Notes under the pieces: model-generated | Seen by the model: the letters and a program-made list of their open reading frames with translations, nothing else | Told to the model about the DNA's origin: nothing | Databases searched by the model: none | Assembly (NCBI RefSeq): GCF_054482595.1 | Contig: NZ_CM137008.1 | Length of the DNA stretch: 64,000 bases | Reading direction: 5' to 3' (one strand) | Translations under genes and position numbers: made by a program | Part shown: in pieces, positions 35,975 to 58,373 of the stretch | How positions within the stretch are numbered: the first letter of the stretch is position 1 | How the letters are laid out: each line of letters opens with the position of its first letter

Positions 35975-35998
35975 TTTATTCCTCTTAAAAAAGTGTAC

Positions 35999-42266: not shown

Positions 42267-42303
42267 GGTAACCCCAATGGATTAAAATAGATGGCGGAAA
42301 TAA

Positions 42304-42331: not shown

Positions 42332-42376
42332 TGATTACCTGTTCTGGATCAATAGATGGGCAGTCGGGTGGGCGGA

Positions 42377-42964
42377 TCAGTTAACTGAATCGATCCATTG
42401 CACACTGTCGGCGGTGAGCGTAAAGGGGGTGGGGGTGCAGATCGCAAGGCTTAAATTTTCTAGCTGACAATGGCTGACTGACAGCGAGGAGTGATAGGTG
42501 CTATCTACGCTGACGATTTGCCAGGCGCTGCCGCCACGCTGTTTAACGATGGCTTCTTTGCGCGTCCAGATGCGCCAGAACATTTCCAGTTGCTGATCAG
42601 GATGCACGGCGTCCATCTCAGCGTGTTCCCCGAGGCTGAATACGGCGTTCGCCAGCCAGCGCCAGTTGGCGCGCGGGCGAATCACTTCGATATCGCAGCC
42701 GACTTCGCCTTCATCACTCAACAGCAGAGCGATATCGTCACCGCTATGGCTTAAGTTGAACCATAGCGGCGTTTCCGGCGCGAATGCAGGTTTGCCTTGT
42801 TCGCCATAGATGATCTCCGGTAGCGGGGAAAGCGTGTGCGAAAGCAATGCACGCCCCGCCAGCCAGCGTTCGCGTCGTGGACCTTGCGGTGCTTGCTCGC
42901 GTAAACCCGGTGGCAGTGGAGCTGCGCTTAAGGTCGAAACTTTCCCCAGAACTATCCGATACAT
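42377..42964 (-). CDS. acpT: 4'-phosphopantetheinyl transferase AcpT
   Basis: 195 aa from MYRIVLGKVSTLSAAPLPPG; the ATG lies 2 nt downstream of the stop of the preceding ketosynthase gene on the same strand; the longer ORF-track start was rejected. Confidence 0.88.
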   Translation of the reverse strand: MYRIVLGKVSTLSAAPLPPGLREQAPQGPRRERWLAGRALLSHTLSPLPEIIYGEQGKPAFAPETPLWFNLSHSGDDIALLLSDEGEVGCDIEVIRPRANWRWLANAVFSLGEHAEMDAVHPDQQLEMFWRIWTRKEAIVKQRGGSAWQIVSVDSTYHSSLSVSHCQLENLSLAICTPTPFTLTADSVQWIDSVN

Positions 42965-42965
42965 A

Positions 42966-44195
42966 TCAGGGCCAACGTTTAATGATGATGGATGTATTAA
43001 TGCCGCCAAAGGCAAAGTTGTTACTCTGCAAAAACTCACAATCAACCTTGCGGGCTTCATGCATGATGTAATCCAGCGCGCCACAATTCGGGTCTGGTTT
43101 ATTCAGGTTTAGCGTAGGCGCAAACCAACCTTCGCGCATCATTTGCAGACTCATCCAGGCTTCGAGCGCGCCACAGGCACCAAGCGTATGACCAAAATAA
43201 CTTTTCAGCGAGGAGAGCGGCACATTATCACCGTAAATGGTTGCTGTCGCCAGACTTTCTGCCATATCACCGCGATCGGTCGCCGTACCATGCGCTGAAA
43301 TATAGCCGATATCTTGTGCGCTTAACCCGGCGATTTTCAGCGATTGCTCCATACAATACTGCATGGTTTCGCGCTGCGGCTGGGTAATATGTGCCGCGTC
43401 GCAGTTAGTCGCAAAGCCGACGATTTCACCGTAAATGGTCGCGCCGCGCGCTTTGGCGTGCTCCAGTTCTTCGAGAATGAGCGTACCTGCGCCTTCACCA
43501 ATCACCAGCCCGTCGCGGTTTTCATCGAACGGTGAAGGTGTGGTTTTCGGCGCATCATTGTGCTGGCTGGTGGCGAAAAGCGTATCAAATACCGCTGCTT
43601 CTGAAGGACATAACTCTTCGGCACCACCAGCAACCATCACCGTTTGATAACCGTGGCGAATGGCTTCCCACGCATAACCGATTGCCTGGCTGCCGGAAGT
43701 ACAGGCGCTGGAGGTTGGGATCACCCGCCCGCGCAGGCCGAAAAAGAGGCCAGTATTAACGGCGGTGGTGTGCGGCATCATCTGCACATAGGTGGTGCCA
43801 GTGATGTTATTGGTGTGCTTTTCCGTCAGCATGGTGGCGAACTCGCTTACCGGGCCGGTACTGCCGGTCGATGAACCGTACGCAATGCCCGTTTCGCCGC
43901 TGGTTAATATCGGATCGCCAATCAACCCTGCCTGCTCTAACGCCAGCTCGCTGGCACGGGTCGACATTTGCGACACGCGGCCCATCGCACGGATACGCTT
44001 GCGGGTGTAGTGCTCCGGTAGCGTGAAATCATCAACAGGCGCGCCAAGCAGGGTGTGCAGCCCGTCGTAGACCTGCCACTCCGGCATTTTGCGCACCGCA
44101 TTTTCATACGCCAGTAAGCGTGCAGAAACGTCCTGCCAGTTTTCACCAAAGGCAGTCACGCCACCCATTCCTGTAATCACTACGCGACGTGTCAT
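42966..44195 (-). CDS. apeR: Beta-ketoacyl-ACP synthase (KAS I/II-like) of the aryl polyene-type cluster
   Basis: 409 aa; active-site Cys in SSACTSGSQ and His motifs HGTAT and GHTLGACG; letter assignment by position in the conserved apeB-apeR order. Confidence 0.75.
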   Translation of the reverse strand: MTRRVVITGMGGVTAFGENWQDVSARLLAYENAVRKMPEWQVYDGLHTLLGAPVDDFTLPEHYTRKRIRAMGRVSQMSTRASELALEQAGLIGDPILTSGETGIAYGSSTGSTGPVSEFATMLTEKHTNNITGTTYVQMMPHTTAVNTGLFFGLRGRVIPTSSACTSGSQAIGYAWEAIRHGYQTVMVAGGAEELCPSEAAVFDTLFATSQHNDAPKTTPSPFDENRDGLVIGEGAGTLILEELEHAKARGATIYGEIVGFATNCDAAHITQPQRETMQYCMEQSLKIAGLSAQDIGYISAHGTATDRGDMAESLATATIYGDNVPLSSLKSYFGHTLGACGALEAWMSLQMMREGWFAPTLNLNKPDPNCGALDYIMHEARKVDCEFLQSNNFAFGGINTSIIIKRWP

Positions 44196-44923
44196 AACAT
44201 CCCTCCGTTGATGGAAATAACCTGGCGGGTGACGTAACCCGCAATATCAGACATTAAATAACTGGCAAGCCCGGCAACTTCTTCCGCCTGGCCCATACGT
44301 TTCATGGGGATCATCGACATTGCCTCTTTCAGAGCGCTCTCTTCCATTTCGATCATCCCGGTATCAATAAGCCCTGGCGCGATGCAATTGACGGTGATTT
44401 TGCGCTTTGCGAGTTCGATAGCCAGCGCTTTTGTTGCGCCGATAATTCCGGCTTTGGCAGCGCTGTAATTCACCTGGCCGCGATTGCCCATTACGCCGGA
44501 AACCGAGGACAGCGTGATGATGCGCCCACCCTGGCGCGCGCCGATCATTGGCATAATGCACGGCTGAATGACGTTGTAGAAACTGTCGAGATTGGTGTGG
44601 ATCACCGCATCCCAGTCGTCATCGCTTAAAGCCGGAAAAGCGGCATCGCGGGCGATCCCGGCGTTACTGACCACGCCGTACCAGGCACCGTGTTGCGCGA
44701 TCTCATGCTCCAGCACTTCCCGACACTGTTCGCGGTTTGCGACGTCGAAACTGAGCAAACGCCCGTTACCCCCGTTGGCGACAATGGCATTCAGCGTTTC
44801 CTGAGCGCCTGTGGCGTCACGGTGATAGTGAACGCCAATGTTAAAGCCGTCTGCCGCCAGTTGGCAGGCGATGGCGCGACCAATGCCTTTGCTGGCACCA
44901 GTAACCAGAACTGAACGACTCAT
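44192..44923 (-). CDS. apeQ: 3-oxoacyl-ACP reductase (SDR, FabG-like)
   Basis: 243 aa; Rossmann TGASKGIGRAIA; catalytic YSAAK. Confidence 0.75.
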   Translation of the reverse strand: MSRSVLVTGASKGIGRAIACQLAADGFNIGVHYHRDATGAQETLNAIVANGGNGRLLSFDVANREQCREVLEHEIAQHGAWYGVVSNAGIARDAAFPALSDDDWDAVIHTNLDSFYNVIQPCIMPMIGARQGGRIITLSSVSGVMGNRGQVNYSAAKAGIIGATKALAIELAKRKITVNCIAPGLIDTGMIEMEESALKEAMSMIPMKRMGQAEEVAGLASYLMSDIAGYVTRQVISINGGML

Positions 44924-45387
44924 CAGGACGCTCCTTGTTGAAACAGGGTGGTAAGTTCTTCCGCGGTCGGCTGGAAGGTGTTAATGCGGCCCGTCGCCTC
45001 GCCGTCGTTGATGCTGCACTCAAAACTGCCGAAGCGATCGTCCTGCATCAGCAGTTTGACGGTAATGGTCAGCGTCTGGCCTGCGGGCAGAATGCCAGCG
45101 GCGCAAAGCAATTCACGCGCGCCCAGTATCATCCCTAACTCAATACTGTTTTTGCCCTGCTGGTGGCGATGCCAGCCAGACCAGACGCCGACGGTTTGCG
45201 CCATCAGTTCAAGGGCAAACCAGCCAGGGAGATTGCCGTCCGGGTCGAGAAACGGTGCCAGTACGCCACTGGGCGAAACCGTCACGCGGCACACCGCGCT
45301 GTCATCGCTGACGCTCACCACGTCTTCCAGCAGTAACATGGGCGCGTCGTGGGGCAGATAAGCGCCGGGGGATAAATAGTGGCTCAC
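44923..45387 (-). CDS. apeP: Hotdog-fold 3-hydroxyacyl-ACP dehydratase (FabA/FabZ-like)
   Basis: 154 aa hotdog-fold protein between the reductase and ketosynthase genes. Confidence 0.65.
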   Translation of the reverse strand: MSHYLSPGAYLPHDAPMLLLEDVVSVSDDSAVCRVTVSPSGVLAPFLDPDGNLPGWFALELMAQTVGVWSGWHRHQQGKNSIELGMILGARELLCAAGILPAGQTLTITVKLLMQDDRFGSFECSINDGEATGRINTFQPTAEELTTLFQQGAS

Positions 45388-46562
45388 GAAACCCTCCCGA
45401 GCAGAATGCTGGCGTTATTGCCGCCAAAGGCGAAGGAATTGGACAGGATCACCGGACGTGCCAGCGGCTGCGGTTTTTCGATAATGCCGCAGGGTGGCAG
45501 CGTGGGATCGCGTGGCGACAGGCTGAAATCTTGGGCGGGCAGCGGTAAATCACGCTGTAAGATCAACATACTGATTGCTGCTTCGGTAATGCCCGCCGCG
45601 CCCAGCGTGTGGCCGGTCAAATGTTTGGTGGAGCTGCACGGTACGCGTTCGCCAAACAGGGCGTTAACCACCATCGATTCAATCTGGTCGTTGAGTTGCG
45701 TGGCGGTGCCGTGCAGGTTGATATAGCCGACGTCATCTGGCGTAAGCTGCGCATCGGTCAGTGCCTGATTAATGGCGCGGATCGCCCCTTCGCCCTGCGG
45801 ATGCGGGGCCGAAATATGGTAAGCGTCACTCGATTCACCAACGCCCAGCAATGCGATGGGCTGCGGTTCGCGGGTTAATAACATCAGCCCCGCGCCTTCG
45901 CCAATGGTGATACCTGCGCGGTCACGACCGAACGGCTGACATAAAGTTGGCGAGAGCGATTCGAGGCTGTGAAAACCGTTAATCGGCATCCGGCTCAGGG
46001 TGTCTGCGCCACCCACAATGGCGGCATCGACCAGCCCCGTCTCGATAAGCCTGCGCCCGCTGATCATCGCTCTGGCGCTGGAGGAGCAGGCGGTTGAAAG
46101 GGTATAGGCCGGGCCGTCGAGCGCCAGCCAGTGGCTGAGAAAACGCGACGGATCGCCAAGTTCCTGTTGTGCGTAGTGCCATGTGGTGCTCGGCAGCCCG
46201 TGGGTGCGCAGGTTAACGTGCGTGTCGCCTTCATGCAGGCCGGAGGTGCTGGTGCCAAGTACAATCGCGATGCGCTCGCGACCATATTTCGCTATAGCGT
46301 CATCAACCTGCGGCTGGAGCTGCGCCAGCGCCGCCAGCAGGATCTGATTGTTGCGCGAGCGATGCGCAGCGAATTTTTCCGGGATAAGCGGAAGCTCGCC
46401 ATCCACGCCAGCCAGGACCGCCTGCGGATGCCCCTGCAACCAGCCTGCGCGTGGGCGCATTCCGGGGGCGACACCGCGAGCCAGGTTGGCTGCGATTTCG
46501 TCAAGATTATTTCCCAGGGCGTTGATCATGCCGACGGCGGAAATATAAATCATATCAGTCAC
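45384..46562 (-). CDS. apeO: Beta-ketoacyl-ACP synthase (catalytic ketosynthase subunit)
   Basis: 392 aa; Cys in LSTACSSS; His in HGTATQLND and GHTLGAAG. Confidence 0.75.
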   Translation of the reverse strand: MTDMIYISAVGMINALGNNLDEIAANLARGVAPGMRPRAGWLQGHPQAVLAGVDGELPLIPEKFAAHRSRNNQILLAALAQLQPQVDDAIAKYGRERIAIVLGTSTSGLHEGDTHVNLRTHGLPSTTWHYAQQELGDPSRFLSHWLALDGPAYTLSTACSSSARAMISGRRLIETGLVDAAIVGGADTLSRMPINGFHSLESLSPTLCQPFGRDRAGITIGEGAGLMLLTREPQPIALLGVGESSDAYHISAPHPQGEGAIRAINQALTDAQLTPDDVGYINLHGTATQLNDQIESMVVNALFGERVPCSSTKHLTGHTLGAAGITEAAISMLILQRDLPLPAQDFSLSPRDPTLPPCGIIEKPQPLARPVILSNSFAFGGNNASILLGRVS

Positions 46563-47139
46563 CTAAGTATTGAATGGTGATGTGGTATTTAAAGACATGC
46601 TGTTCAATGCTGATTGGCACGCGTTTGCCCTTGCGATTCAGATAGGTGATTTCCGTGACCAGCTTGCCGCTGGCGTTACGCAGCTCGCGTTTGTCACCGT
46701 TGTCGCGAAGTGTCCAGCCAGTGGGAAGTTGCGGTTGCCAGGCGCTAATCGGCCAGTGGCTGAGCATTACGTCAGCCAGCACCTGACTTGCGGGCGGCAA
46801 CTGTGGGACGACGATGGATTGCTCGGCGCGTAGCCCTTGCGCATCGTAGGTCAACAGAAACAGGCGAATGCCGACCGACGACAGCCCGGCAAGGGTGATT
46901 TTCTGGTCGTCGGCGTTAAGCATCACTAACAGCGACTGGGTTTTGCCGTTGAAGCTGCCGGTCAACAGTTGCTGGGAATTGACGGCGGGTGAAATCCCTG
47001 GTGCCGGCAGCGTGATGCGCGTGCCAGGTTGCAGCCACGCCTGCGGGCGGCCTTCCTGTTCCGGTTGCGAGTGGCTACAGCCGGTGAGGATAAGCGTAGC
47101 GGTCAGGGCGAGCGCTCGCCAGAATGTGGGTTTGATCAT
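46555..47139 (-). CDS. apeN: Lipoprotein of the aryl polyene-type cluster
   Basis: 194 aa; signal peptide with lipobox LTGC. Confidence 0.6.
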   Translation of the reverse strand: MIKPTFWRALALTATLILTGCSHSQPEQEGRPQAWLQPGTRITLPAPGISPAVNSQQLLTGSFNGKTQSLLVMLNADDQKITLAGLSSVGIRLFLLTYDAQGLRAEQSIVVPQLPPASQVLADVMLSHWPISAWQPQLPTGWTLRDNGDKRELRNASGKLVTEITYLNRKGKRVPISIEQHVFKYHITIQYLGD

Positions 47140-49454
47140 TTTTTTGTTCTCTTTTTATCGGGCATCGCCAGCGGCGAAAGCAGGAAGGCGGTGAAAATAC
47201 CGCTCACCAGCACAATGCCAAAACTGCTGATGGCCTGGGTGGCGCTGAATACCAGCATTCCCAGCGTCAGCAAGGTGGTGAGCATTGCCAGCGTGATCGC
47301 CAGTAGCGAAGTTAATGGTGTACCGCGCGGATTACTGAAAAACAGCGTGTAGTTGATGCCGATGCCAAGCACCAGCACCAGCGCCAGCAGCGAAAAGAGA
47401 TTCACCGCCTGCCCGCTCATCGCCAGCACCGCCAGACCACAACCCAGCGAAAGCACCGAAGGTACAAGGCTGATAAGCCCTTTGCGCCAGCCGAGACGGG
47501 CCACTGCGCCGCAGGCAATCACCGCCAGCGCCACCAGCAACAAGCCGGTTAAGACATAACGGTAAAGCGCGAACAACTCATCAAAGGTGCTTTTGCGATC
47601 AACCCAGGCAATGCCGCAAGGGTAATATGTGGCGATTTCCTGCATCAACGCGCTACTTTTAACCCCTTCAACCGGCACCAGTACGCCGCTTTCGCCGTTT
47701 TCCAGCGTCAGCCACAGCAGACGCCAGCCTTCACTGGCGGGGCTTGCCAGCCATTCATCAACGTTCACTGGCATGGCGTTGAGATCCGGGTTCACTGCCG
47801 TCAGCCCGGCATTTTGCAGCGCTTTTGTTACTGTCGGGGCCGCCGTTTTCAGCAGTTGTAAATCTTCCTCCTGCCGCGCAAGGGAGTTCAGCGGAATGGT
47901 GCGGTAGTTGCTGATAAGCCCCTCTTTTTTCGCATACTCAAGTGAGGCGGTATATTTCTCCAGTCGCCGCAATGTTTGCTGTGGCGAATCGCCGTAAACC
48001 ACAAACCATTTTTGATCGACGCTTTGTCCGGTCAGGGCGGTAATGGCTTTCTCCTGGGTCAGAATATGCTGCGGCAGCGCCTGTAACTGCGAGATATCGT
48101 CATCGACGCGCAGCATTGACATCCCCGCCAGCGAAAACAGCGCCAGCGCGACGGGCAGACCCAGCGACAGTTTTTTATTGCGCCGCCACGCTGCCAGCCA
48201 GCGCAGCATCAGCGCCATCGCCGGAACCGGACGCACCGGCAGGCCACGGCACAGCCACGGATGCCAGAACAGGACGGTCAGACAGGAGGCGCTCAACCCG
48301 ACGGCGGCAAAAATCGCCATCTGGCGAATGCCGGGGAAGGGGGCGAGCATCATAATCAGATATGCCGCCACGGTGGTGAGCAGCGCCAGCAGCAGGGCAT
48401 TGCGTACTTTCGCCAGGCTTTGCCACGGCGAAACGTCGTTGCCGTGCACCATCCGCTCGGTGAGATAATAGAGCGTGTAGTCAGCGGAAATGCCGATAAC
48501 GCTCATGCTCATCACCAGCGTCATCAGGTGTAATTCACCGAAAATCAATAAAGTGGCGACCGTTCCCGCCAGCGCGCCGATGCCGATGGAAATCACGCAA
48601 AGCAGCAACGGGCGCAAAGAGCGGAACACCGCCACAATCAGCAATATCACCCCCAGCAGCGTTGCCACGCCCAGGGTTGAGATATCCTGCTTCGCCTGTT
48701 GGCTGGCGTAATCGCTGTAAAACACCGTGCCGCGCGAAAGCAGCTGCGCCTGCGGGTAACGCGTTTTCAGATCCTTTTCCAGCGTATTCAGGGTCGTGAT
48801 GAGCTGGTGGGTTTGCTGCATATCAAACGACGATCCCGCCAGTTCACCGTGCAGCAGATACCAGTAGTTGCCCTGGGGATCCTGCGTCACCAGCCAGCCG
48901 TCCATCAGCCGCAAACGCTGGCCGTTTTTCGCCATCGCCAGCTGCGAGCCGCGCATTAACATCAGCGGATCGTTTTGCAGCTCCTTGCCGCTTACCCCGG
49001 AGAACGCAGAATAAAGCTGGGAGAGGATCCACTGCGCCTGCGCTTCGCCGCCGTTTTGCAGGCGCGCGCGGGTGTCGGGGTCAATCAGGCCGTTGCGGTG
49101 CTGCCAGAAAAACGCTCCCCACGCTTGCTGGCTGGCGGCATCCATTGGCCCTTTAACGTCGCCGAGCGCAGCGGATTTTTGCAGCAGCGTCAGCCACTCC
49201 TGAGCGACCCTGGGATTAGCCTCTTTACCGGGGCTGACCAGCCACACCAGTTGGCGGTCCAGACGCTGCATAAAGCCGTCATTCAGCGCTGGGGGAATAT
49301 CGCCCATAGCCTGTTTGGGTAACATAGCCAGCACGCTACTGTTCAGCCGTGATTGCGGCAGCAGGATCAGCAACGCCGCCGCCATGACCAGGCAGACTAG
49401 CCCCCATAACAGCGCGGGGCGTTTACTGGGCGGCAAAACGTTGGCGTTCGTCAT
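47136..49454 (-). CDS. apeM: MMPL/RND-superfamily exporter
   Basis: 772 aa; two transmembrane bundles each followed by a large soluble domain; translationally overlaps its neighbours. Confidence 0.7.
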   Translation of the reverse strand: MTNANVLPPSKRPALLWGLVCLVMAAALLILLPQSRLNSSVLAMLPKQAMGDIPPALNDGFMQRLDRQLVWLVSPGKEANPRVAQEWLTLLQKSAALGDVKGPMDAASQQAWGAFFWQHRNGLIDPDTRARLQNGGEAQAQWILSQLYSAFSGVSGKELQNDPLMLMRGSQLAMAKNGQRLRLMDGWLVTQDPQGNYWYLLHGELAGSSFDMQQTHQLITTLNTLEKDLKTRYPQAQLLSRGTVFYSDYASQQAKQDISTLGVATLLGVILLIVAVFRSLRPLLLCVISIGIGALAGTVATLLIFGELHLMTLVMSMSVIGISADYTLYYLTERMVHGNDVSPWQSLAKVRNALLLALLTTVAAYLIMMLAPFPGIRQMAIFAAVGLSASCLTVLFWHPWLCRGLPVRPVPAMALMLRWLAAWRRNKKLSLGLPVALALFSLAGMSMLRVDDDISQLQALPQHILTQEKAITALTGQSVDQKWFVVYGDSPQQTLRRLEKYTASLEYAKKEGLISNYRTIPLNSLARQEEDLQLLKTAAPTVTKALQNAGLTAVNPDLNAMPVNVDEWLASPASEGWRLLWLTLENGESGVLVPVEGVKSSALMQEIATYYPCGIAWVDRKSTFDELFALYRYVLTGLLLVALAVIACGAVARLGWRKGLISLVPSVLSLGCGLAVLAMSGQAVNLFSLLALVLVLGIGINYTLFFSNPRGTPLTSLLAITLAMLTTLLTLGMLVFSATQAISSFGIVLVSGIFTAFLLSPLAMPDKKRTKK

Positions 49455-50028
49455 CGGTCAGTTGCGCTGGCGTCAGTTGATGTTGGGTAAGAGCAATATC
49501 GGTGCGATCGCCCTGTTTATCATTAAGTTGAATGCTCTCCAGATAGGTTTTCCCGGCGAGATCGATGGTGTTGAAAATTTTATCCAGCGGCGTGGTGGTC
49601 GGCGTCAGGCGCAGCGTCCAGCGGCCTTCGCCTTTGTCAGCAAATTCGACGCGGAAGTTTTGTTCCAGCACTTTGCGATCGGCCTGGAACAGCGCGCGCA
49701 GCAGGTGGTTAAACTGGAACATCTGCGGGTTGTTTTCTGCCGTGATGATTTGCGGCGGCTGACCGTTGATCACCTGCACCATGCGTTTATCATCCAGCAA
49801 TAGCTGCATGGGGAACGGTGAGGTTTGATCCCACAATAACCCCTGGTCGCGGGCGATCAACATCTGACCCTGAGATCGCAGCGGCTGCGGCAGATCTTTA
49901 ATCGTCCGGGTTTGATCAAAATGGGCGCGGATCACCGGTTGTTCGGTAAAGCGTTGCTGAAGATCGTCCAGGGTCAGGGCGCTCACAAACGGGCTAATCA
50001 GCAGCGCCAGCAGCGGTAAAAATTTCAT
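49423..50028 (-). CDS. apeL: LolA-like outer membrane lipoprotein carrier protein
   Basis: 201 aa with signal peptide; LolA-like size and fold inferred from sequence. Confidence 0.65.
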   Translation of the reverse strand: MKFLPLLALLISPFVSALTLDDLQQRFTEQPVIRAHFDQTRTIKDLPQPLRSQGQMLIARDQGLLWDQTSPFPMQLLLDDKRMVQVINGQPPQIITAENNPQMFQFNHLLRALFQADRKVLEQNFRVEFADKGEGRWTLRLTPTTTPLDKIFNTIDLAGKTYLESIQLNDKQGDRTDIALTQHQLTPAQLTDDERQRFAAQ

Positions 50029-50447
50029 GGTTTGACTCCCATGCGTTCAAACAGAATATCGGGGCTGACAAAGCACAGTTCGCGACTTTGCTCGTCGACC
50101 GCGACCTGAATGGTGTATCCGGTGGTGGCGCGTTTGCCCGTTTCGGCATCGAAAATCTGATAGCCAATCCGCAGACGGTTTTCGAACTCTTCGATATGCG
50201 CACGCACGCGGATGCGTTGCTCAAAGGTGAGGGCGTGGCGATATTTCACCCGCGCATCGACCACTGGCCACAAATAACCGGACTCTTTCATCTGCCGATA
50301 GCCGTAATTGAACTGGTTGAGCAGCGCCTCGCGGGCCACTTCAAAGTAGCGAAAATAGTTACCGTGCCAGGCCACGCCCATCATATCGACGTCGTGAAAG
50401 GGAATGGTCAGCTCGACTTCAGCGGTAAATCGGGGATCGTTAAGCAC
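50025..50447 (-). CDS. apeK: Hotdog-fold acyl-ACP/CoA thioesterase (4HBT family)
   Basis: 140 aa; …IPFHDVDMMGVAWHGNYFRYFE… is typical of 4HBT thioesterases. Confidence 0.7.
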   Translation of the reverse strand: MLNDPRFTAEVELTIPFHDVDMMGVAWHGNYFRYFEVAREALLNQFNYGYRQMKESGYLWPVVDARVKYRHALTFEQRIRVRAHIEEFENRLRIGYQIFDAETGKRATTGYTIQVAVDEQSRELCFVSPDILFERMGVKP

Positions 50448-50450
50448 CCT

Positions 50451-52127
50451 TTACTCCTTGTCCTGAATTTCCGGCAGTTGCCAGAAATCGAAAAAATTAA
50501 ACCAGTCGAGGGGCGACTGGAGCGCGTAATGTTCCAGACGCGCGGCGTAGTGGTCGATAGCGTTTTGCAGCGCCTGCTGGCGTTCGCCACGCGGCAGTTG
50601 CAGCGGGTCGGCAAAGCTTTCGCAGTGAATATGCAGCTTGCCGTGCTGGCGTAGGGCGAAAATCAGATTCACTGGGCAGCGCAAAATAGAGGCGAGAATA
50701 AACGGCCCCTGTGGGAAGGGCGCAGGCTGGCCCATAAACGGACTCCAGCAGACGCGCCAGTCGCCGCCGCGTTGCGGGGTGACGGCGATGCGGTCACCGA
50801 CAATCGCCACCCATTCGCCGTTATCCAGCTTCTCTTTCAGCAGGATGGCGGTTTCTGGGCCGATATCTGTTACCGGCATCAGGTTAATGCCTGCCTGAGG
50901 AGCCATCTCCTGCATTATCTGTTTAAAGCGTTGGGCGTTTTCGCTAAACACCAGCGCGTTAATGGTTTTGTAGCCCTGAATTTTTGCCAGCGCCCGGCAC
51001 ACTTCCACATCGCCAAGATGCGAGGCCAGCAGCAATTTGCCGCGCGGATCGCGGACGTCAAGCGCCGCTTCTGCGCCTGGCGCAAACAGCACATCACGCC
51101 CCAGTTGTAGCTCGCCGCGCCAGCTGGCGATTTTGTCGAGCATGGCATTACCGAAACGTAGAAAGTGCTGATAGCTGTTGAGTTTTGCCGCCTGTGGTTG
51201 ATGCTGTCGTACACGGGCGAGCCAGTCTTGCGACGCTTTGCGCGCACGAGAAGCAGTGAGCCAGTAGACGCCCACCACCGGGTAAAGCAGCGCGCTAAAC
51301 GCCGTTCTTCCCAGCAGACGCCAGACCAGCAGCATCAGGCGCATTCCCCATAATCCTTTCACTTCACTCTGCCGCGCCCAGTGGCTGGAAGAGCGGCGCA
51401 TCAGCAGTGAAGGAATACGCGGTAACATGCCGAAAAATAGACGCGTGTGCATGAGCGAGATGCGGACGTTATCTTTCAGGGCATCAAAATGCGAAAGCCC
51501 GTCCAGTGGATAGGTGACGCGGGTCGGCACGAAATAGCTGGTGTTTCCCTGCCAGTAGAGGCGCACCATCACTTCAGTGTCGAAATCCATCCGCTTGCCG
51601 ATGGTGGCGTGTTTTGCCAGTTGCAGCGTTGGCGCAACCGGATAAACGCGAAAGCCGCACATGCTGTCTTTCAGTTGCAGGGAGAGCGTTTCGATCCATA
51701 CCCAGACGTGGGTGACCCAGCGCCCGTAAAGCCGTGAGCGGGGGATGGAGTCATCGTAAATTGGCTGGCCGGAGATCAGCGCCGCAGGGTGTTGTTCAGC
51801 GACTGCCAGCAGTTTGGGGATATCTTCAATCGCATGTTGACCGTCAGCATCCACCTGCACTGCATGGCTGAACCCTGCGTCTGCCGCTGCCTGTAAGCCA
51901 CGCATCACTGCCGCGCCTTTACCTGCGTTTTCTGCTAAGCGAATTAAGGTCACGCCAGGCTGTTCGCTAACCAGATTATCCAGTTGCTGTTGCGTGGCGG
52001 CATCGCTGCCGTCGTCCACCACAATACAGGGGAGATTAAATGGCTTAAGACGCGCCAGCACGCCCGGCATCATCGCGCCGTGGTTATAGCAGGGGATCAA
52101 CACGCAGGGAGAAAAGTTTACCGACAT
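50451..52127 (-). CDS. apeJ: Bifunctional family-2 glycosyltransferase / LpxL-like acyltransferase
   Basis: 558 aa; N-terminal GT2 (CVLIPCYNHG…VVDDGSDA), C-terminal lipid A acyltransferase-like domain. Confidence 0.7.
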   Translation of the reverse strand: MSVNFSPCVLIPCYNHGAMMPGVLARLKPFNLPCIVVDDGSDAATQQQLDNLVSEQPGVTLIRLAENAGKGAAVMRGLQAAADAGFSHAVQVDADGQHAIEDIPKLLAVAEQHPAALISGQPIYDDSIPRSRLYGRWVTHVWVWIETLSLQLKDSMCGFRVYPVAPTLQLAKHATIGKRMDFDTEVMVRLYWQGNTSYFVPTRVTYPLDGLSHFDALKDNVRISLMHTRLFFGMLPRIPSLLMRRSSSHWARQSEVKGLWGMRLMLLVWRLLGRTAFSALLYPVVGVYWLTASRARKASQDWLARVRQHQPQAAKLNSYQHFLRFGNAMLDKIASWRGELQLGRDVLFAPGAEAALDVRDPRGKLLLASHLGDVEVCRALAKIQGYKTINALVFSENAQRFKQIMQEMAPQAGINLMPVTDIGPETAILLKEKLDNGEWVAIVGDRIAVTPQRGGDWRVCWSPFMGQPAPFPQGPFILASILRCPVNLIFALRQHGKLHIHCESFADPLQLPRGERQQALQNAIDHYAARLEHYALQSPLDWFNFFDFWQLPEIQDKE

Positions 52128-52501
52128 AGGCGGATCTTCCCGCTACTGGCGGTGTGGCGGGCGTCACCGTCGTGACGCTGATAGCTAAAGCTCAGAATCT
52201 GGCGTTCTTCCTGCCAGTTAAGCGCGAGCGTGACGCGGTTTTCCGGCAGCAACGGAGACTGGAATTTTATGTTCTGAATGGAGTGAAAACGCCAGCCAGG
52301 CGCGAGCAGATTGAGCGCGTAGCTCATCGCCCAGTCGATTTGCGCAACTCCTGGGAGTAATGGTTGCACGGCAAAATGACCGCGAAACCAGAACAGATCC
52401 GCCCTGAGATGCAGAACAATTTCAAGGTGATTCGTTTGTGCCTGATGGCGCTCGATTTCATGGGGCTTCATGAAATAACTCCTGTAATTGCGCATAGACA
52501 C
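52118..52501 (-). CDS. apeI: Hotdog-fold dehydratase (FabA/FabZ-like)
   Basis: 127 aa hotdog-fold protein; second dehydratase-like gene in the cluster. Confidence 0.6.
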   Translation of the reverse strand: MSMRNYRSYFMKPHEIERHQAQTNHLEIVLHLRADLFWFRGHFAVQPLLPGVAQIDWAMSYALNLLAPGWRFHSIQNIKFQSPLLPENRVTLALNWQEERQILSFSYQRHDGDARHTASSGKIRLCR

Positions 52502-53858
52502 GCTTGTTCATACTGTTTACTGGCATTTCATCAATAACGCGCCAGTAACGCGGAATAGCAACTGGCTCCAGCGTCGGGCGCAGTAAACGCCGCCAGGTCA
52601 TTTCCTGGCTATGCCCGCCGCCGTTCTGCCATTGCAGATGAGCTTCGTCATCCAGCACCAGCAAAACGCCTATGCTCTGACGCCCGCCGCGCGTAACGGG
52701 AACTGCCGCCGCCTCGCGAATGCCGTCCAGCGCCAGTAGACGTTGTTCTACTTCCTGGAGTGAAATACGTTTTTCTTCAATCTTAACGATGCGCCCACGA
52801 CGCCCCATCAGATGGAACTGACCATCTTCGCTAAGCTGTAAGATATCGTCGAGTAACAGGCCGTTATCTTCCGCTATCAGCGGTGAAAAGAGGCGAAAGG
52901 CATCGCCTTCGGCTTGGAACTGCATACCTGGGAGGGGTAGCCAGCGGCGTTGCTCTTGTTCGCGGTAACGCCAGGCGATGACGCCGGTTTCCGTGCTGCC
53001 GTAGATTTCATCAGGCCAGACGCGCAGCCAGCTTGCGGTGTGTTGTACATCCTGCCACGGCAGCTCACCGCCAGCAGAGAGAAGCACCTGAACGGGTGGC
53101 GGAGAAAGCTGGGTATCCAGGCGCTTCAAAAATGCCGGGCTGCTGATGAAGATATAGCGATGCTGATGACTCAACGCGGCAAACTGTTCGACATACCAGA
53201 GCATGGCGGCGTGCAGCGGTAATCCCAACGCCATGGGCAGGAAAACACGAAAAGTCAGGCCGTACAAATGCTGCGGCAATACGGAACCGACGACACGACA
53301 ACCCGCCAGACGTGCGCCTAATCGTTCAGCCAGCAGTTCTGCTTCACGATCCAGCAAATGAACAGGTTTAATCACCCGTTTCGGCTGTCCCGTGGAACCG
53401 GAGGTAAACAGCTCGATAAAAGCCTCTGGCGCTATAGCGGCAAAGGTGAAGGATTGTGTCGCGACTTGTGGGGAACTTGCTACCAACAGCCATGAACCTT
53501 GCCAGTTAAGTTCGCTGTCGCTAAGCACACCATCGAACAGTTCACGTTGCTCGTTAAGCTGGATGACACGGTTATGCCCCGGAAGCACCGGTGTTTTTCC
53601 GGCGTGTAGCGTGGCGAGCAGGGCAACGATAAACAGATAGCTGTTCTCAAAGCACAGCGCCCAGCGTTCACCCGGCTGTTGCTGCAAGCGGCAGATAAGT
53701 TGCGCGACATCGTGACGCAAATCGCCCAGCGTCCAGGTGCTTTCGTCCAGCCACGCAATGGGCGTGTCATCAGGGCGTGGCGCAGTCAGCCAGCGTGCAA
53801 GCGGTAAGGTCTGCTTCATGCGCGATCTCTTTTCATCACCTGACGGCGCACCAGCCAT
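52458..53858 (-). CDS. apeH: AMP-dependent synthetase/ligase (adenylating enzyme; putative aryl starter activation)
   Basis: 466 aa; AMP-binding motif FTSGSTGQPK; ORF-track start overlaps neighbours by ~43 nt, so the true start may be downstream. Confidence 0.7.
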   Translation of the reverse strand: MAGAPSGDEKRSRMKQTLPLARWLTAPRPDDTPIAWLDESTWTLGDLRHDVAQLICRLQQQPGERWALCFENSYLFIVALLATLHAGKTPVLPGHNRVIQLNEQRELFDGVLSDSELNWQGSWLLVASSPQVATQSFTFAAIAPEAFIELFTSGSTGQPKRVIKPVHLLDREAELLAERLGARLAGCRVVGSVLPQHLYGLTFRVFLPMALGLPLHAAMLWYVEQFAALSHQHRYIFISSPAFLKRLDTQLSPPPVQVLLSAGGELPWQDVQHTASWLRVWPDEIYGSTETGVIAWRYREQEQRRWLPLPGMQFQAEGDAFRLFSPLIAEDNGLLLDDILQLSEDGQFHLMGRRGRIVKIEEKRISLQEVEQRLLALDGIREAAAVPVTRGGRQSIGVLLVLDDEAHLQWQNGGGHSQEMTWRRLLRPTLEPVAIPRYWRVIDEMPVNSMNKRVYAQLQELFHEAP

Positions 53859-54397
53859 TCACCAGCCATTAATGTTCCCATCAACAAATAAGCAATCATG
53901 CCGTTCCAGGCGGTCCATAACGACATATCGGCATAAAGCGCGGTAAAGAGGGCAATTCCACCGTTAATGATGAAAAAGCCGCACCAGATTTGCGTGACGT
54001 GGCGGGTATAGCGCACGCCCTTTTCCGGGAGGTCTGGCTCCTGCAACCGCGCCAGCCGCTCAACTATCGGCATTGCCGACCACAGCGAACCGCCAAAAAC
54101 CGCCAGCATGACCGCGTTAACCACTACCGGGTAAAACAGCAGTAGCTGGTGCGTTTTCAACATAAAGCTGGCGACACATAATGCGATGCCCACGACAGCG
54201 ACGAGTTGCGTGACGGCTTGTAAAGGCCCCGCCTGGCGACGGGTCTGGCGCAGACGCAACAAAAGCAGCAACGCCATTAGCGGTAACAGCCAGTGCAGGC
54301 CGTTATGCGCTAAGCCAAACCAAATCACAAACGGCCAGGCGAGCAGCAATAATCCAGTCAGCAGCTTAATCATCGGTAGCGAGCGAATGCCCGACAT
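53816..54397 (-). CDS. apeG: Integral membrane protein of the aryl polyene-type cluster
   Basis: 193 aa with several transmembrane segments. Confidence 0.55.
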   Translation of the reverse strand: MSGIRSLPMIKLLTGLLLLAWPFVIWFGLAHNGLHWLLPLMALLLLLRLRQTRRQAGPLQAVTQLVAVVGIALCVASFMLKTHQLLLFYPVVVNAVMLAVFGGSLWSAMPIVERLARLQEPDLPEKGVRYTRHVTQIWCGFFIINGGIALFTALYADMSLWTAWNGMIAYLLMGTLMAGEWLVRRQVMKRDRA

Positions 54398-54401
54398 CAG
54401 A

Positions 54402-54653
54402 TCAGGCTTCTTGTAGCAGGCGTTCTACAGCCTCGACGACATCCTGGACTGTACGCACGGCTTTAAACTCTTCCGGCTTGATTTTCTTACCGGTTTTCTT
54501 TTGCAGGTGCACAATCATGTCAACGGCGTCGATGCTGTCCAGTTCCAGATCTTCGTACAGGCGCGCTTCAGGTTTGATGTCCTGCGGATCGATTTCAAAC
54601 AGCTTAACCAGCAGGGCTGAGACTTCCTGATAGACGGTTTGTTGTTCTGTCAT
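54402..54653 (-). CDS. apeF: Acyl carrier protein
   Basis: 83 aa; phosphopantetheine attachment motif LELDSIDAVD. Confidence 0.8.
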   Translation of the reverse strand: MTEQQTVYQEVSALLVKLFEIDPQDIKPEARLYEDLELDSIDAVDMIVHLQKKTGKKIKPEEFKAVRTVQDVVEAVERLLQEA

Positions 54654-54664
54654 GATGGCTTTCC

Positions 54665-54922
54665 TCAGGCACGTTGCGCAGCAATGAAAGAGGCCAGAGT
54701 GGCGACGGAGAAAAAGTGCTGACGCATCTCTTCGCTTTCCGCAGAGAGCACGATGCCGTACTCATTTTTTACTGCCAGTCCCAGTTCCAGGGCATCGATA
54801 GAGTCCAGCCCTAAACCGTCGCCAAACAGCGGCGCGTCGGTATCGATATCATCAGGCGTCAACTCGTCCAGATTGAGGGTGCTGATGATGAGGTTTTTAA
54901 TTTCCAGATAAAGCGCTTGCAT
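54665..54922 (-). CDS. apeE: Acyl carrier protein
   Basis: 85 aa; motif LGLDSIDALE. Confidence 0.8.
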   Translation of the reverse strand: MQALYLEIKNLIISTLNLDELTPDDIDTDAPLFGDGLGLDSIDALELGLAVKNEYGIVLSAESEEMRQHFFSVATLASFIAAQRA

Positions 54923-55736
54923 TATTTATTCCTGAGAGAGGTAAACAACCTTGTTGTAATTGAAGCAAAAGATGCCGGTTTAACTGCCTTGCTGCCAGCG
55001 CCGGTTCTTGTGAAGTTGCATCGTAAAATTTATTGATTTCAACCCGACCATGGACTGCAACCGTAAAAAACGGCCGGTCAGGTGGAACGTCATACCATTT
55101 ACTTTGTTTATCCAGCAGATGCTCGCTACAGCCGATCGTCACGATGCGTAAATCGCTGGCACAGCGCACGGCAATATTCGCCGCCCCGCGCTGCAGCGTC
55201 ATTTTTTCACCGGGCTTCGTTCGCGTGCCTTCGGGGAAAATCAGGATAGTGTCACCCTGTGCCAGTCGCTGTTGGCAGCGGGGTAACAGGGTTTCAGCTT
55301 CGCTGTTGATTAAATAATCTGCCGCCCGCACGACGCCGCCAAGAAAAGGATTTTTTAACAGCGCGCTTTTCACCAGGCAGTCAGTTTCTGGCATGACTGA
55401 CGCCAGCAGCACGTAATCGATCAGCGTGGGATGATTGGCTACGACGAGGCAACCGCGTTCCTGACGTAAAATTTCAGCGCCATCAATACGATAATCCAGC
55501 ACGCCAAGCCCTTTCGCGACAGTTAAAAACAGGCGAAAACTGGCGGCAATGCTGCGACGCGCCAAACGACGGCGGCGGGAAGTATCCCACACCAAAACTA
55601 ACAATATGTTAAACCACACGACAGAAAGCAGCAGGCCGCCGAGACCAAACAGGGCAAAACATAACCCGGTCATGACCAGTCGCCAGGTCCACTCCAGACG
55701 TGACAGCAGCTTACTCATCCACGGCTCCAGCGCCAC
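54897..55736 (-). CDS. apeD: Lysophospholipid acyltransferase (PlsC/LPLAT family)
   Basis: 279 aa; H(X4)D motif in VVANHPTLIDYVLL and FPEGTRT motif. Confidence 0.7.
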   Translation of the reverse strand: MALEPWMSKLLSRLEWTWRLVMTGLCFALFGLGGLLLSVVWFNILLVLVWDTSRRRRLARRSIAASFRLFLTVAKGLGVLDYRIDGAEILRQERGCLVVANHPTLIDYVLLASVMPETDCLVKSALLKNPFLGGVVRAADYLINSEAETLLPRCQQRLAQGDTILIFPEGTRTKPGEKMTLQRGAANIAVRCASDLRIVTIGCSEHLLDKQSKWYDVPPDRPFFTVAVHGRVEINKFYDATSQEPALAARQLNRHLLLQLQQGCLPLSGINNASALSGN

Positions 55737-56461
55737 TGTACGCGCTCGCCAGGCAGTGAAAATGTGTCCGCATTTTGTAAATAGTGCTGTAAAAACAACA
55801 TGCTTTGCGGCAGTGTTGTTTCATTACCCGCAATGGCTGACTGCGTTTCACATTGCCACTCATCGCCAGCTTCAATCACCAGCGCGACGGCGTACGGCCA
55901 GGTCGGCATTTCTGCGGGCAGTTGTGGATGATAGAACTCAGGCAGAAAGCCATCAAAATCGACCATCAGCACGCGCTGGTATCCCGCTTGTAACAGGCTA
56001 AGCACTTCACACAAACCTTGCTGGAAAGTGTCGCGACCAGCAGAAAGCGATGACGAAACGATCGGCTGTTTGGCCGCAATGGTCAGGTTACCCACGGAAG
56101 AGTTGTGTACTGAAAGTGCAAAGTCGGTCGGAGAAAGCGCCTGTTCGGTTGCCAGTGCATGAACAATGCGGTAATTGCGCTCCAGTTCGCCATGACGACT
56201 GGTATACAAAACGGCGTCTGGCTGATGGCGGCGTAGCATTGCCAGACCGCATTCAACAGCCAGTTTGCTGCCTGAACTGAGGCGGCGGGCGGTCATCATT
56301 GGCAGTTCACTTAATTTTGCCAACGGCGCGGCAGGGTCAATCGCCCACGGCTGGCGCGACCATGCTTGCCATTGCTGCGCTTCGCTAAGTCCAGGCGCCA
56401 GTGCCTGCCAGTCGGTAATATTTAATGTAAATTTCATCAACGCGCGCCCGCGGTAAACCAA
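55715..56461 (-). CDS. apeC: Ketosynthase-like protein lacking the active-site Cys (chain-length-factor-like partner)
   Basis: 248 aa; ketosynthase N-terminal-like fold without a Cys-His-His triad. Confidence 0.6.
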   Translation of the reverse strand: MVYRGRALMKFTLNITDWQALAPGLSEAQQWQAWSRQPWAIDPAAPLAKLSELPMMTARRLSSGSKLAVECGLAMLRRHQPDAVLYTSRHGELERNYRIVHALATEQALSPTDFALSVHNSSVGNLTIAAKQPIVSSSLSAGRDTFQQGLCEVLSLLQAGYQRVLMVDFDGFLPEFYHPQLPAEMPTWPYAVALVIEAGDEWQCETQSAIAGNETTLPQSMLFLQHYLQNADTFSLPGERVQWRWSRG

Positions 56462-56477
56462 AATTATTAAGTGACGA

Positions 56478-57545
56478 TTATTTCTTTTGGCATATCAAAA
56501 GTGTATGCCCAACGCCTAAATTATCGTGGCGCTCTGCTACCTGGAATCCTGCTTTATTCAGATAGTCGTAAAATTTCTCTGCACTATAGAAACGGCTGTT
56601 ACCGTTTGCCATGCAGGTAAAATAAAGTGAGGACGCGTTCAGGCTAAATGATGCTGCTTCAAACCGCTGCGCATCCCAGAACAACTCCATGATGCAAACT
56701 TTTGCGCCAGGCTTCATTACGCTGGCAATTTTGCTGAGTATGCTAATTATTTGTTCGGGTGAAAAACAGTCTAAAAATTGGCTCATCCACCAGATATCAG
56801 CCTCGCCCGGTAATGGGGCATCGCTTAGCATATCCACCGCATGGAAATCTATGCGATCAGAAAAACCTGCATTCGCGATATTTTCTTTCGCTAGTACGAT
56901 TTGTTGTGGCAGATCTAATAACGTCACGGCGATGTTTTCATTGTATTTGCAGCAACGCAAAGCCCACTTACCCGTATTGCCGCCTACATCGTACAATGTT
57001 GTGGGGTTGTTGGCGAATACATAAGGCAGTGCGGCGTTAAATGCGCCATCTGAATAGTAATGATCAAACGCAAACCAGCTTTCACGAGCGGCGTCTGGTA
57101 ATTGCGAAAGTGCCGGATATATCGTCGACCAGTCGCCAAATACTTTTAACCCGGAAGGTTTTCCTTCATTGAGTGAATCGGCGAGGAAGAAGAGCCCCTG
57201 GTAACAGACATCCTGGGTGAAATCCATATTCACGCGAGTCATAGTGTCATGCAGGAGGTAATGACCGATTTTCGCCAGGTAATAAATTCCCTCTTTACAG
57301 GTAATAATTCGCCCGCTTAAGCCCATATCTAACAGAACGCTGGCAGCATATTCGTTGATATGGCTATGTTCGGTGATATCAGCCAGCGTTGCGCCATGTT
57401 TGCCTTGCCGATCCAGATATGAAAGTACACCCGCATTACGTAGGCAGAGTGCTGTTTGAAAAAGCATAGGGGCAAAGGCAATGCGTTGAGCTTCGGTAAT
57501 CGCATCCAGTGCGCTAAGAGAATCCTGTTCGTACATGTTGGGCAC
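56478..57545 (-). CDS. apeB: SAM-dependent methyltransferase
   Basis: 355 aa; class I methyltransferase glycine-rich motif DVGGNTGKWAL. Confidence 0.7.
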   Translation of the reverse strand: MPNMYEQDSLSALDAITEAQRIAFAPMLFQTALCLRNAGVLSYLDRQGKHGATLADITEHSHINEYAASVLLDMGLSGRIITCKEGIYYLAKIGHYLLHDTMTRVNMDFTQDVCYQGLFFLADSLNEGKPSGLKVFGDWSTIYPALSQLPDAARESWFAFDHYYSDGAFNAALPYVFANNPTTLYDVGGNTGKWALRCCKYNENIAVTLLDLPQQIVLAKENIANAGFSDRIDFHAVDMLSDAPLPGEADIWWMSQFLDCFSPEQIISILSKIASVMKPGAKVCIMELFWDAQRFEAASFSLNASSLYFTCMANGNSRFYSAEKFYDYLNKAGFQVAERHDNLGVGHTLLICQKK

Positions 57546-57604
57546 AACCTGTTAAGAGGGAATTAAATTATTATCGGACCGCAACGGCCCGACTTTAGGA
57601 AGAA

Positions 57605-57994
57605 TTATAAATCTGCGCCCGCTGACAAATTCAGTTGAATATCTTTGTCGAGATTGCGGACCCAGCGATTGTAGTTTTTATGAATTTGTCCGCCTGACGC
57701 TTGTAGGTTCTGGCTATTTTCATAATTGATATCGTAGCTGGATGCCGTGTAGTTAATGCGTATTTCCGCTGAATGATCGCGTGACTGTTGACGTGCTTTA
57801 ATTATGCCTTGTCCGGCTTCGGACATAATCCATTTGCGTTCAACGCCAGCTTTCAGAATCGCTTTTTTCACTTGTTCCTGGGTATGACCAGCGCTGACGG
57901 TTGAGTGAACCTGATCAATTGGCGCAGTACGCGCGCAACCTGCTAAAGCACCCACAACAGCAATAGCCGCAAACCATTTCATGTAATGTCTCAT
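57605..57994 (-). CDS. Small lipoprotein, possible first gene of the biosynthetic operon
   Basis: 129 aa; signal peptide and lipobox LAGC; AT-rich 380 bp promoter-like region upstream. Confidence 0.55.
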   Translation of the reverse strand: MRHYMKWFAAIAVVGALAGCARTAPIDQVHSTVSAGHTQEQVKKAILKAGVERKWIMSEAGQGIIKARQQSRDHSAEIRINYTASSYDINYENSQNLQASGGQIHKNYNRWVRNLDKDIQLNLSAGADL

Positions 57995-58373
57995 TAGAAC
58001 CCCATTAAAGTATTGTTTTTACGAGTAAAGCAAGATTTAACTGTAATTGCTGGCATCACTATTCTTTATTTAGAGAAAAAATTACTTGTGAGATAAGTCA
58101 GTAAGTGCACATCAGAGTAAAAATCTCTGAAATGACTAAATTACTGCCAGCAGGGACCAACTATAAGTGAGTGAGAAAAATGAGGCAATAAAAATAACAC
58201 AATGTTATCAGTGCATTCTTTGAGAAGGATTTAATCGCTATTCGGCGTTTATATATATTTGACTTAAGGAATGGTTTTTTTAAATTAATTTTCTGAATAA
58301 TGTTTCATCATTTCCTCAAATCAAATGGCCACTGTTAGATAAACGGTGGCCATTGCCTGCTCAGGAGGTGCTA

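Follow-up and report, generated by a model that had tools for sequence, protein, structure and literature searches.

The block between yhhT and acpT very probably represents the Escherichia coli aryl polyene cluster apeA-apeR

The DNA analysed here is a stretch of 64,000 nt from contig NZ_CM137008.1 of RefSeq assembly GCF_054482595.1 (denoted the window; all positions are its coordinates). On its minus strand, a block of 15,029 bp at 42966-57994 carries a set of biosynthetic genes that we compared with known aryl polyene (APE) clusters, in particular that of Escherichia coli CFT073. The gene inventory was compiled from an open reading frame listing and from the RefSeq annotation of E. coli strain THO-010, the locus of which is identical; the interval is 100% identical to that strain and 98.1% identical to O157:H7 strains. 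It comprises 18 co-directional genes, extending from 57982 or 57994 (two possible starts of the first gene) down to 42966, all of which are full length and free of internal stops. Neighbouring genes overlap at eleven of the 17 junctions, by 1-32 nt, and are separated by at most 68 nt at the others. A first-pass annotation of this DNA had placed 17 or 18 co-directional, mostly overlapping genes between acpT and yhhT, a description that the inventory bears out with 18. The flanking genes are yhhT (58374-59423) upstream and acpT downstream, and the GC content of the cluster is 55.5% versus 50.1% for the remainder of the window. In the order apeA to apeI, the genes encode a lipoprotein, a methyltransferase, a ketosynthase resembling a chain-length factor (CLF), an acyltransferase of the lysophospholipid acyltransferase (LPLAT) type, two acyl carrier proteins (ACPs), a membrane protein of the COG4648 family, an adenylating enzyme and a dehydratase; they are followed, from apeJ to apeR, by a GT2 glycosyltransferase fusion, a thioesterase, a LolA-like protein, an MMPL/RND transporter, a DUF3261 lipoprotein, a ketosynthase, a dehydratase, a ketoreductase and a further ketosynthase.

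This order is identical, from A through R, to that in the published table of apeA-apeR of E. coli CFT073 (PMC8253772); the first-pass annotation had proposed, from gene content and order, a match to the conserved apeB-apeR layout of aryl polyene clusters. The CFT073 cluster corresponds to c1204-c1186, and all of its genes have been deleted singly (Johnston et al. 2021, PMC8253772); its product was shown by heterologous expression, according to the work of Cimermancic et al. 2014 as cited in PMC8253772. The 18 genes of the two clusters share the same order, orientation and lengths, save for ApeH (453 versus 452 aa) and the choice of the apeA start. Overall amino-acid identity is 92.6%, with 14 of the 18 proteins at 94-100% (ApeK 100%, ApeR 99.8%, ApeL, ApeP, ApeQ and ApeO 98.7-99.5%, ApeB 94%). 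The nine genes of the core set defined by Grammbitter et al. (apeO, apeR, apeE, apeF, apeC, apeI, apeP, apeQ and apeM) are all present and intact. On sequence grounds, we consider it very probable that 42966-57994 represents the E. coli APE cluster apeA-apeR, situated at its ancestral site, the O-island 138 locus, with yhhT and acpT as its neighbours. The system itself is already known, both as the APE cluster of E. coli and as O-island 138 with AcpT; the points that go beyond the first-pass annotation are this prior characterisation, the functional membership of acpT, a deletion in K-12 and the divergence of apeH, apeI and apeA from CFT073.

The core enzymes carry the assignment. Both ApeR (motifs SSACTSG, HGTAT and GHTLG) and ApeO (STACSSS, HGTAT and GHTLG) possess the Cys-His-His triad expected of the two predicted ketosynthases. 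In a motif alignment, ApeC, a protein of 240 aa, had no equivalents of TACSS, HGTxT or GHTLG, which is consistent with the proposed Cys-less, CLF-like partner. The best PDB matches of ApeO and ApeC, full length in both cases, were chains A (582 bits) and B (313 bits) of 6QSP, the ApeO:ApeC complex of Xenorhabdus doucetiae; likewise, ApeP and ApeI matched best and over their full lengths to chains B (164 bits) and A (136 bits) of 6QSR, the ApeI:ApeP complex of the same organism. X. doucetiae belongs to another family of the Enterobacterales and has the same set of ape genes. Scores against enzymes of primary fatty acid synthesis were much lower: ~169 bits for the best FabF match of ApeO, ~250 bits for ApeR on E. 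coli FabF versus 552 bits on PDB 4EWG, and 165 bits for ApeQ on E. coli FabG (1I01) versus 515 bits on PDB 4IIU.

Profile searches gave the same picture. ApeR scored 778 bits on PRK09116, its dedicated equivalog, versus 353 bits on FabF (cutoff 494), and ApeO 553 bits on PRK09185 and 208 bits on FabF (cutoff 494); the FabB equivalog scores were 266 and 123 bits versus a cutoff of 630. The FabZ scores amounted to 25 and 22-24 bits versus cutoffs of 113-155, and ApeE and ApeF reached 27 and 50 bits on the AcpP equivalog, the cutoff of which is 70. ApeQ exceeds the thresholds of generic FabG models, yet its top score was obtained on FabG2 (TIGR01831). The predicted reductase and the two hotdog dehydratases, ApeI and ApeP, were thus recovered by profile and structure-sequence matches, and PGAP names the ApeP and ApeI families at the locus. 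The first-pass annotation had specified in advance that a grouping of the ketosynthases and ACPs with FabB, FabF and AcpP would speak against an APE cluster; because these proteins pass their own models and miss the FabF, FabB and AcpP equivalog cutoffs, no such grouping was found.

With the primary type II fatty acid synthase (FAS II; FabF/FabB, FabG, FabZ/FabA and AcpP), the cluster has folds and chemistry in common, and the catalytic motifs are kept in ApeO, ApeR and ApeQ. The locus might therefore be read as a specialised fatty acid synthase island, the product of which would be not a polyene pigment but an atypical acyl chain, saturated or mono-unsaturated, for the modification of lipid A or a phospholipid. 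The original annotation of O-island 138 was indeed 'fatty acid biosynthesis', the core enzymes all belong to FAS II-type families with generic PGAP names, and LPLAT-type acyltransferases are present. We regard this reading as highly improbable. Unlike FAS II, the ape cluster has a ketosynthase:CLF heterodimer and a heterodimeric dehydratase, both orthologous to the corresponding APE complexes, and profile searches matched no enoyl-ACP reductase family among the 18 products, so that double bonds would be retained, as a polyene product requires. In addition, a dedicated adenylating enzyme of the aryl-acid type is present, and a collinear, near-identical cluster makes APE on heterologous expression.

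The accessory functions named in the first-pass annotation were largely recovered as well: ApeE and ApeF as the two ACPs, each with a DSID serine; ApeH as the AMP-ligase, with AMP-binding matches and the motif TSGSTGQPK; ApeK as the thioesterase (4HBT) and ApeB as the methyltransferase; and LolA-like ApeL, MMPL protein ApeM and DUF3261 protein ApeN as the export module. In characterised orthologs of ApeH, the starter is 4-hydroxybenzoate. ApeG matched no Pfam or NCBIfam family. Several of these proteins bring the flexirubin clusters of Bacteroidota and the xanthomonadin clusters of Xanthomonas into consideration, which also combine type II polyketide synthase/FAS-like polyene assembly on an aryl starter with LolA/RND-type export. 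A pigment cluster of either type, as opposed to an APE cluster in the strict sense, would be compatible with the partial matches to FlxJ (474 bits), FlxB (266 bits) and LolA2_flexi (55 bits); however, all three scores lie below the equivalog cutoffs of 560, 340 and 125. Among the 18 product annotations, we saw no resemblance to DarA/DarB, tyrosine ammonia-lyase, halogenase or XanB2, no XanB2- or halogenase-specific model having been run. Given also the enterobacterial host and the layout of the CFT073 subfamily, we attach next to no credence to a flexirubin or xanthomonadin assignment, and retain that of an APE cluster.

Features of the ape locus. Positions refer to the 64,000-nt window; bit scores are given with cutoffs where available.
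Feature	Position	Strand	Product or assigned role	Basis or remark
apeA	57605..57994	-	small lipoprotein, signal peptide and LAGC lipobox	RefSeq start 57982, longest open reading frame start 57994
apeB	56478..57536	-	S-adenosylmethionine-dependent O/C-methyltransferase, predicted to act on the aryl head group	NCBIfam FlxJ-family methyltransferase, 474 bits (equivalog cutoff 560)
apeC	55715..56437	-	truncated ketosynthase-like CLF, predicted ApeO partner	6QSP_B, 313 bits; PF13723 in orthologs
apeD	54897..55718	-	lysophospholipid/glycerol-3-phosphate-type acyltransferase, HX4D motif NHPTLID	TIGR00530 domain match; PF01553 in orthologs
apeE	54665..54922	-	ACP, predicted to carry the aryl polyene chain	PRK09184, 90.8 bits (cutoff 70); AcpP model, 27 bits
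apeF	54402..54653	-	second ACP	PRK05350, 146 bits (cutoff 65); AcpP model, 50 bits (cutoff 70)
apeG	53816..54397	-	polytopic membrane protein, COG4648 family, proposed export role	PGAP name in other strains; position corresponds to ApeG row of PMC8253772 Table 1
apeH	52458..53819	-	adenylate-forming acyl-ACP synthetase, predicted aryl-starter selection and loading	AMP-binding matches
apeI	52118..52471	-	hotdog dehydratase subunit, predicted ApeP partner	6QSR_A, 136 bits; PF22818 ApeI-like in orthologs
apeJ	50451..52127	-	GT2 glycosyltransferase (residues 8-131) and putative C-terminal acyltransferase half	PF00535, E 3.7e-20
apeK	50025..50447	-	4HBT/YbgC-type hotdog thioesterase	TIGR00051 and MenI matches; 100% to CFT073 ApeK
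apeL	49423..50028	-	periplasmic LolA-like carrier	LolA 60 bits and LolA2_flexi 55 bits, both under cutoff; PF19574/PF03548 in orthologs
apeM	47136..49454	-	MMPL/RND-superfamily inner-membrane exporter	HAE3, HpnN and MMPL matches; PGAP name
apeN	46555..47139	-	DUF3261 lipoprotein, LTGC lipobox, LolB-like	PF11659 in orthologs
apeO	45384..46553	-	elongating Cys-His-His ketosynthase, predicted heterodimer with ApeC	6QSP_A, 582 bits; PRK09185, 553 bits
apeP	44923..45387	-	hotdog dehydratase subunit	6QSR_B, 164 bits; PGAP 'ApeP family dehydratase'
apeQ	44192..44923	-	3-ketoacyl-ACP reductase, FabG2 type	TIGR01831, 476 bits (cutoff 339); 4IIU, 515 bits
apeR	42966..44195	-	predicted initiating Cys-His-His ketosynthase	PRK09116, 778 bits; 4EWG, 552 bits
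acpT	42377..42964	-	4'-phosphopantetheinyl transferase	NF007676, 396 bits (cutoff 174); outside the interval of the first-pass annotation
spacer yhhT-apeA	57995..58373	-	379 bp, presumed operon promoter region	33% GC

The gene downstream of the block belongs functionally to it. The ATG of acpT follows the TGA of apeR after a single nucleotide (5'-TGAtATG-3' on the minus strand), and acpT can therefore be regarded as in effect the nineteenth gene of the cluster, encoding the cognate 4'-phosphopantetheinyl transferase of ApeE and ApeF. The adjacency of apeR and acpT is also seen in Citrobacter and Klebsiella. Both ACPs of the O157:H7 cluster are phosphopantetheinylated by AcpT in vitro (De Lay & Cronan 2006, as cited in PMC8253772), and an O157:H7 strain shares the RefSeq protein ids of AcpT and ApeE with the window. 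The O157:H7 locus, known as O-island 138 (OI-138; PMC3893438), coincides with that of the window in position and allele: identity amounts to 98.1% over all 15,029 bp, the flanks are shared, and the RefSeq protein ids are identical for AcpT, ApeR, ApeQ, ApeL, ApeK, ApeI, ApeE and ApeA. The differences between O-island 138 and the window amount to strain-level polymorphism only.

The comparison with K-12 provides the history of the site. As the first-pass annotation had stated, the block is absent from K-12: MG1655 lacks window positions 42985-58377 (15,393 bp), in place of which it has 38 unrelated bases, and yhhT and acpT are only 54 bp apart. The last 19 nt of apeR (42966-42984, encoding IKRWP and the stop) are nevertheless kept in K-12 directly upstream of acpT. 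Because this remnant persists, the absence is the scar of a 15.4-kb deletion that orphaned acpT, rather than a site that never received an insertion. The gene order zntA-tusA-yhhQ-dcrB-yhhS-yhhT-[apeA..apeR]-acpT of the window recurs in Citrobacter rodentium and Klebsiella, and this shared synteny identifies the yhhT/acpT site as ancestral in the Enterobacteriaceae, despite the higher GC content of the cluster, with loss by many E. coli lineages. A recent horizontal insertion, suggested by the GC content of 55.5%, was rejected, as K-12 retains the 19-nt remnant and the synteny is the same in Citrobacter and Klebsiella.

Across a sample of 5,426 complete E. coli genomes, the cluster was found in 841 and the acpT-apeR junction in 569. 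The apeH gene falls into two discrete classes, one at least 90% identical to the window (569 genomes) and the other ~67% identical (256 genomes). The latter is the CFT073/Nissle type, for which an island site beside cdiBA and insertion sequence (IS) elements was checked in CFT073 and RM9088 only. The allele counts match the chromosomal location, 569 genomes having the window-type apeH and 569 the acpT junction, so that about two thirds of the cluster-bearing E. coli genomes (569 of ~825-841) have the acpT-linked allele. A few E. coli genomes carry both copies (up to two places per genome).

Four observations weigh against the APE assignment or limit its reach: part of ApeJ escapes classification, no promoter stands out, ape clusters tend to be poorly expressed, and the characterised E. 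coli copy differs from the one in the window. Regarding the first, the predicted pair of acyltransferases, one of them fused to a GT2 domain, stood with respect to the LPLAT protein ApeD and to the GT2 fusion itself, but the acyltransferase nature of the C-terminal half of ApeJ (~300 aa) was not confirmed by NCBIfam, PDB search, AlphaFold2 or hhalign. Its sole NCBIfam match, in a search to E 1, was a weak one to the PatA family (E 5e-4), the PDB sequence search returned no meaningful match, and the AlphaFold2 model, calculated on a four-sequence alignment, was unusable (predicted local distance difference test score 41.5). Alignment to E. coli LpxL/LpxM by hhalign yielded an E value of 0.39 and was limited to the motif SHLGDVE in ApeJ and IHFLTLE in the reference, the latter of which we take to be the catalytic HX4E dyad of LpxL; the conserved SHLGDVE fits HX4E. 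On ApeJ, a proposed bifunctional glycosyltransferase/acyltransferase, genetic evidence is available from X. doucetiae (bioRxiv 10.1101/2020.12.19.423268).

Regarding expression, published work portrays ape clusters as poorly expressed or silent under laboratory conditions, and we found no promoter above chance: promoter-like sites numbered 16 versus 10.2 ± 3.5 expected. The AT-rich spacer at 57995-58373, which is absent from K-12, contains one weak sigma-70-like site (58188..58160) and is likely the regulatory region of the operon. A terminator scan gave 28 sites versus 20.8 ± 4.9 expected and no convincing internal terminator, an Rfam scan of 41000-60000 revealed no RNA families, and the cluster itself encodes no regulator. 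One could hence picture the locus as a silent relic of intact sequence that is never expressed and therefore confers no phenotype on the strain. The silence of the X. doucetiae cluster in the laboratory, the modest induction in CFT073, the missing regulator and the 33% GC of the upstream spacer fit such a relic; AT-rich DNA of this kind may be subject to silencing by H-NS. We nevertheless regard it as unlikely, since all 18 genes are intact with a low ratio of nonsynonymous to synonymous divergence (dN/dS), the cluster has been kept at the same site in three genera, and in CFT073 both ape mRNA and Ape proteins were detected, at higher levels at 37 °C, expression being higher also under chronic peroxide stress.

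The last of these points concerns the copy on which the E. coli experiments were done. The CFT073 cluster resides on an island beside cdiBA and IS remnants without an adjoining phosphopantetheinyl transferase, whereas the window copy lies between yhhT and acpT, and the proteins encoded by the two differ in ApeH (66% identity), ApeI (72%), ApeG (81%) and ApeA (64%). At the nucleotide level, identity to CFT073 is 92-100% across ~80% of the cluster, the exceptions being two blocks. In the first (52115-54300), identity falls to 58-74% over apeI and apeH and to 82-85% over a portion of apeG; in the second (57315-57994), which takes in the whole of apeA and the 5' end of apeB, it is 66-70%. Synonymous divergence (dS) from CFT073 reaches 2.9 for apeH and 1.5 for apeI, and in apeA saturation precludes a value; for genes outside these cassettes, it is 0-0.31, with zero for apeK and apeL. 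The dN/dS values span 0.01-0.21 over the cluster and 0.08-0.2 in the diverged cassettes. Accelerated evolution of apeH was considered and rejected, its dS being saturated and its dN/dS 0.08. Judged from these sequence comparisons, the two cassettes are best described as old divergence that arrived through recombination, purifying selection acting on either version; the resulting two-cassette mosaic relative to the CFT073 island copy is a minor new point.

As to which copy changed, the acpT-linked allele looks vertically inherited, because its ApeA and ApeG are nearer to those of Citrobacter (C. rodentium) than are the CFT073 proteins (ApeA 83% versus 68%; ApeG 80% versus 74%). The two E. coli ApeH alleles resemble each other less (66% identity) than either resembles Citrobacter ApeH (73% for the window, 70% for CFT073). 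Window-type ApeH is nearest to Citrobacter and Klebsiella (73-76%), and the closest relative outside E. coli that we saw for the CFT073 type, at 87%, is from Enterobacteriaceae bacterium ESL0689 (unclassified), a possible clue to where the recombined cassette came from.

A separate feature of the comparison is a segment at 49315-50514 (apeL and apeK) in which the DNA is 100% identical to the CFT073 island copy (dS = 0), with neighbours at dS ~0.09-0.16. This pattern suggests a recent gene conversion between the acpT-linked and island loci.

The divergence of the cassettes raises the question of whether the aryl polyene lipid of the acpT-linked allele could differ in chemistry or function, by virtue of another starter, chain length or carrier lipoprotein. 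Such a distinct lipid is thinkable because the apeI-apeH-(apeG) and apeA cassettes are as diverged from CFT073 as between enterobacterial genera; more narrowly, the apeH-apeI cassette alone might shift the aryl starter or the chain length within what is still an APE cluster. The elevated dS of apeH and apeI, the discreteness of the apeH alleles among the surveyed genomes and the fact that we found no report on the product of the acpT-linked allele in the searchable literature are in keeping with such a shift. Set against them, the ApeI of X. doucetiae shares no more than 56-58% identity with the two E. coli alleles, yet the chromophore of that species is the same as that of CFT073, a 4-hydroxy-3-methylphenyl hexaene (bioRxiv 10.1101/2020.12.19.423268). 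Furthermore, at the 183 positions of ApeH that are conserved in at least 95% of 120 Enterobacterales representatives, window ApeH keeps 180 and CFT073 ApeH differs at five, the respective three and five differences being mostly conservative, and the dN/dS of apeH-apeI (0.08-0.16) reflects purifying selection, not functional change. We therefore judge a distinct lipid, whether through the cassettes in general or through a shift by apeH-apeI, to be quite improbable. Because both ApeH alleles keep nearly all conserved positions and the X. doucetiae chromophore is the same despite the low identity of ApeI, the product of the window cluster is expected to be the same as, or very similar to, that of CFT073.

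For an APE cluster of this type, the pathway can be outlined as follows. AcpT would convert apo-ApeE and apo-ApeF into their holo forms, as it does in vitro with the O157:H7 proteins. By analogy with the X. doucetiae ortholog, ApeH would adenylate 4-hydroxybenzoate derived from UbiC and load it directly onto ApeE. ApeR would then perform the first malonyl extension and the ApeO:ApeC heterodimer the later ones; in each cycle, ApeQ would reduce the beta-keto group and ApeI:ApeP would dehydrate the product, assignments modelled on the Xenorhabdus orthologs and on CFT073 genetics. As the cluster encodes no enoyl reductase, a conjugated hexaene would be built. ApeB is predicted to methylate the ring and ApeK to help in release. 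Together, ApeD and ApeJ may join the chromophore to a glycerol-phosphate-N-acetylgalactosamine (GalNAc) lipid of the kind whose structure was solved in Xenorhabdus only, the conjugated fatty acyl chain of which is probably built on ApeF. In X. doucetiae, for which in vitro reconstitution and the structures 6QSP and 6QSR are available together with the full APE-lipid structure (Grammbitter et al., bioRxiv 10.1101/2020.12.19.423268), the lipid is APE-GalNAc-phosphate-glycerol bearing two acyl chains, one conjugated (C26:5) and one saturated. Finally, ApeM, ApeG, ApeL, ApeN and ApeA would carry the lipid to the outer membrane, a step that is a proposed one in all systems.

Elsewhere in the window, the interval between yhhJ and nikR (30455-36745) looks like a second strain-variable segment. 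It contains hicA/hicB toxin-antitoxin genes and a sugar-utilisation block encoding a class II aldolase, an HPr-like protein, an FGGY kinase, the IIC, IIB and IIA components of a galactitol-type phosphotransferase system and a GntR regulator; at this position, K-12 presumably has the RhsB element. The haem-uptake genes chuA and chuS, which we take to be absent from K-12-like strains of phylogroups A/B1, are found at 1-2155, and two tandem DUF4049 genes at 21599-25093.

The main outcome of this analysis is one of annotation: the generic labels of the type 'FabG2 / MMPL / AMP-binding' can be replaced by apeA-apeR plus acpT. Some caution is in order because the E. coli experiments that we found used the CFT073 island allele, which differs in the starter-loading enzyme, although the product is likely the same; if the lipid of the acpT-linked allele were distinct after all, the CFT073 work would not transfer to strains of the O157:H7 type. 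For the CFT073 cluster, the pigment lipid has been shown to shield cells from reactive oxygen species and to favour the formation of biofilms. For Gram-negative bacteria more generally, APE lipids have been reported to confer protection from reactive oxygen species and to favour biofilm formation, and few bacterial biosynthetic gene clusters are as widespread as those responsible for them.

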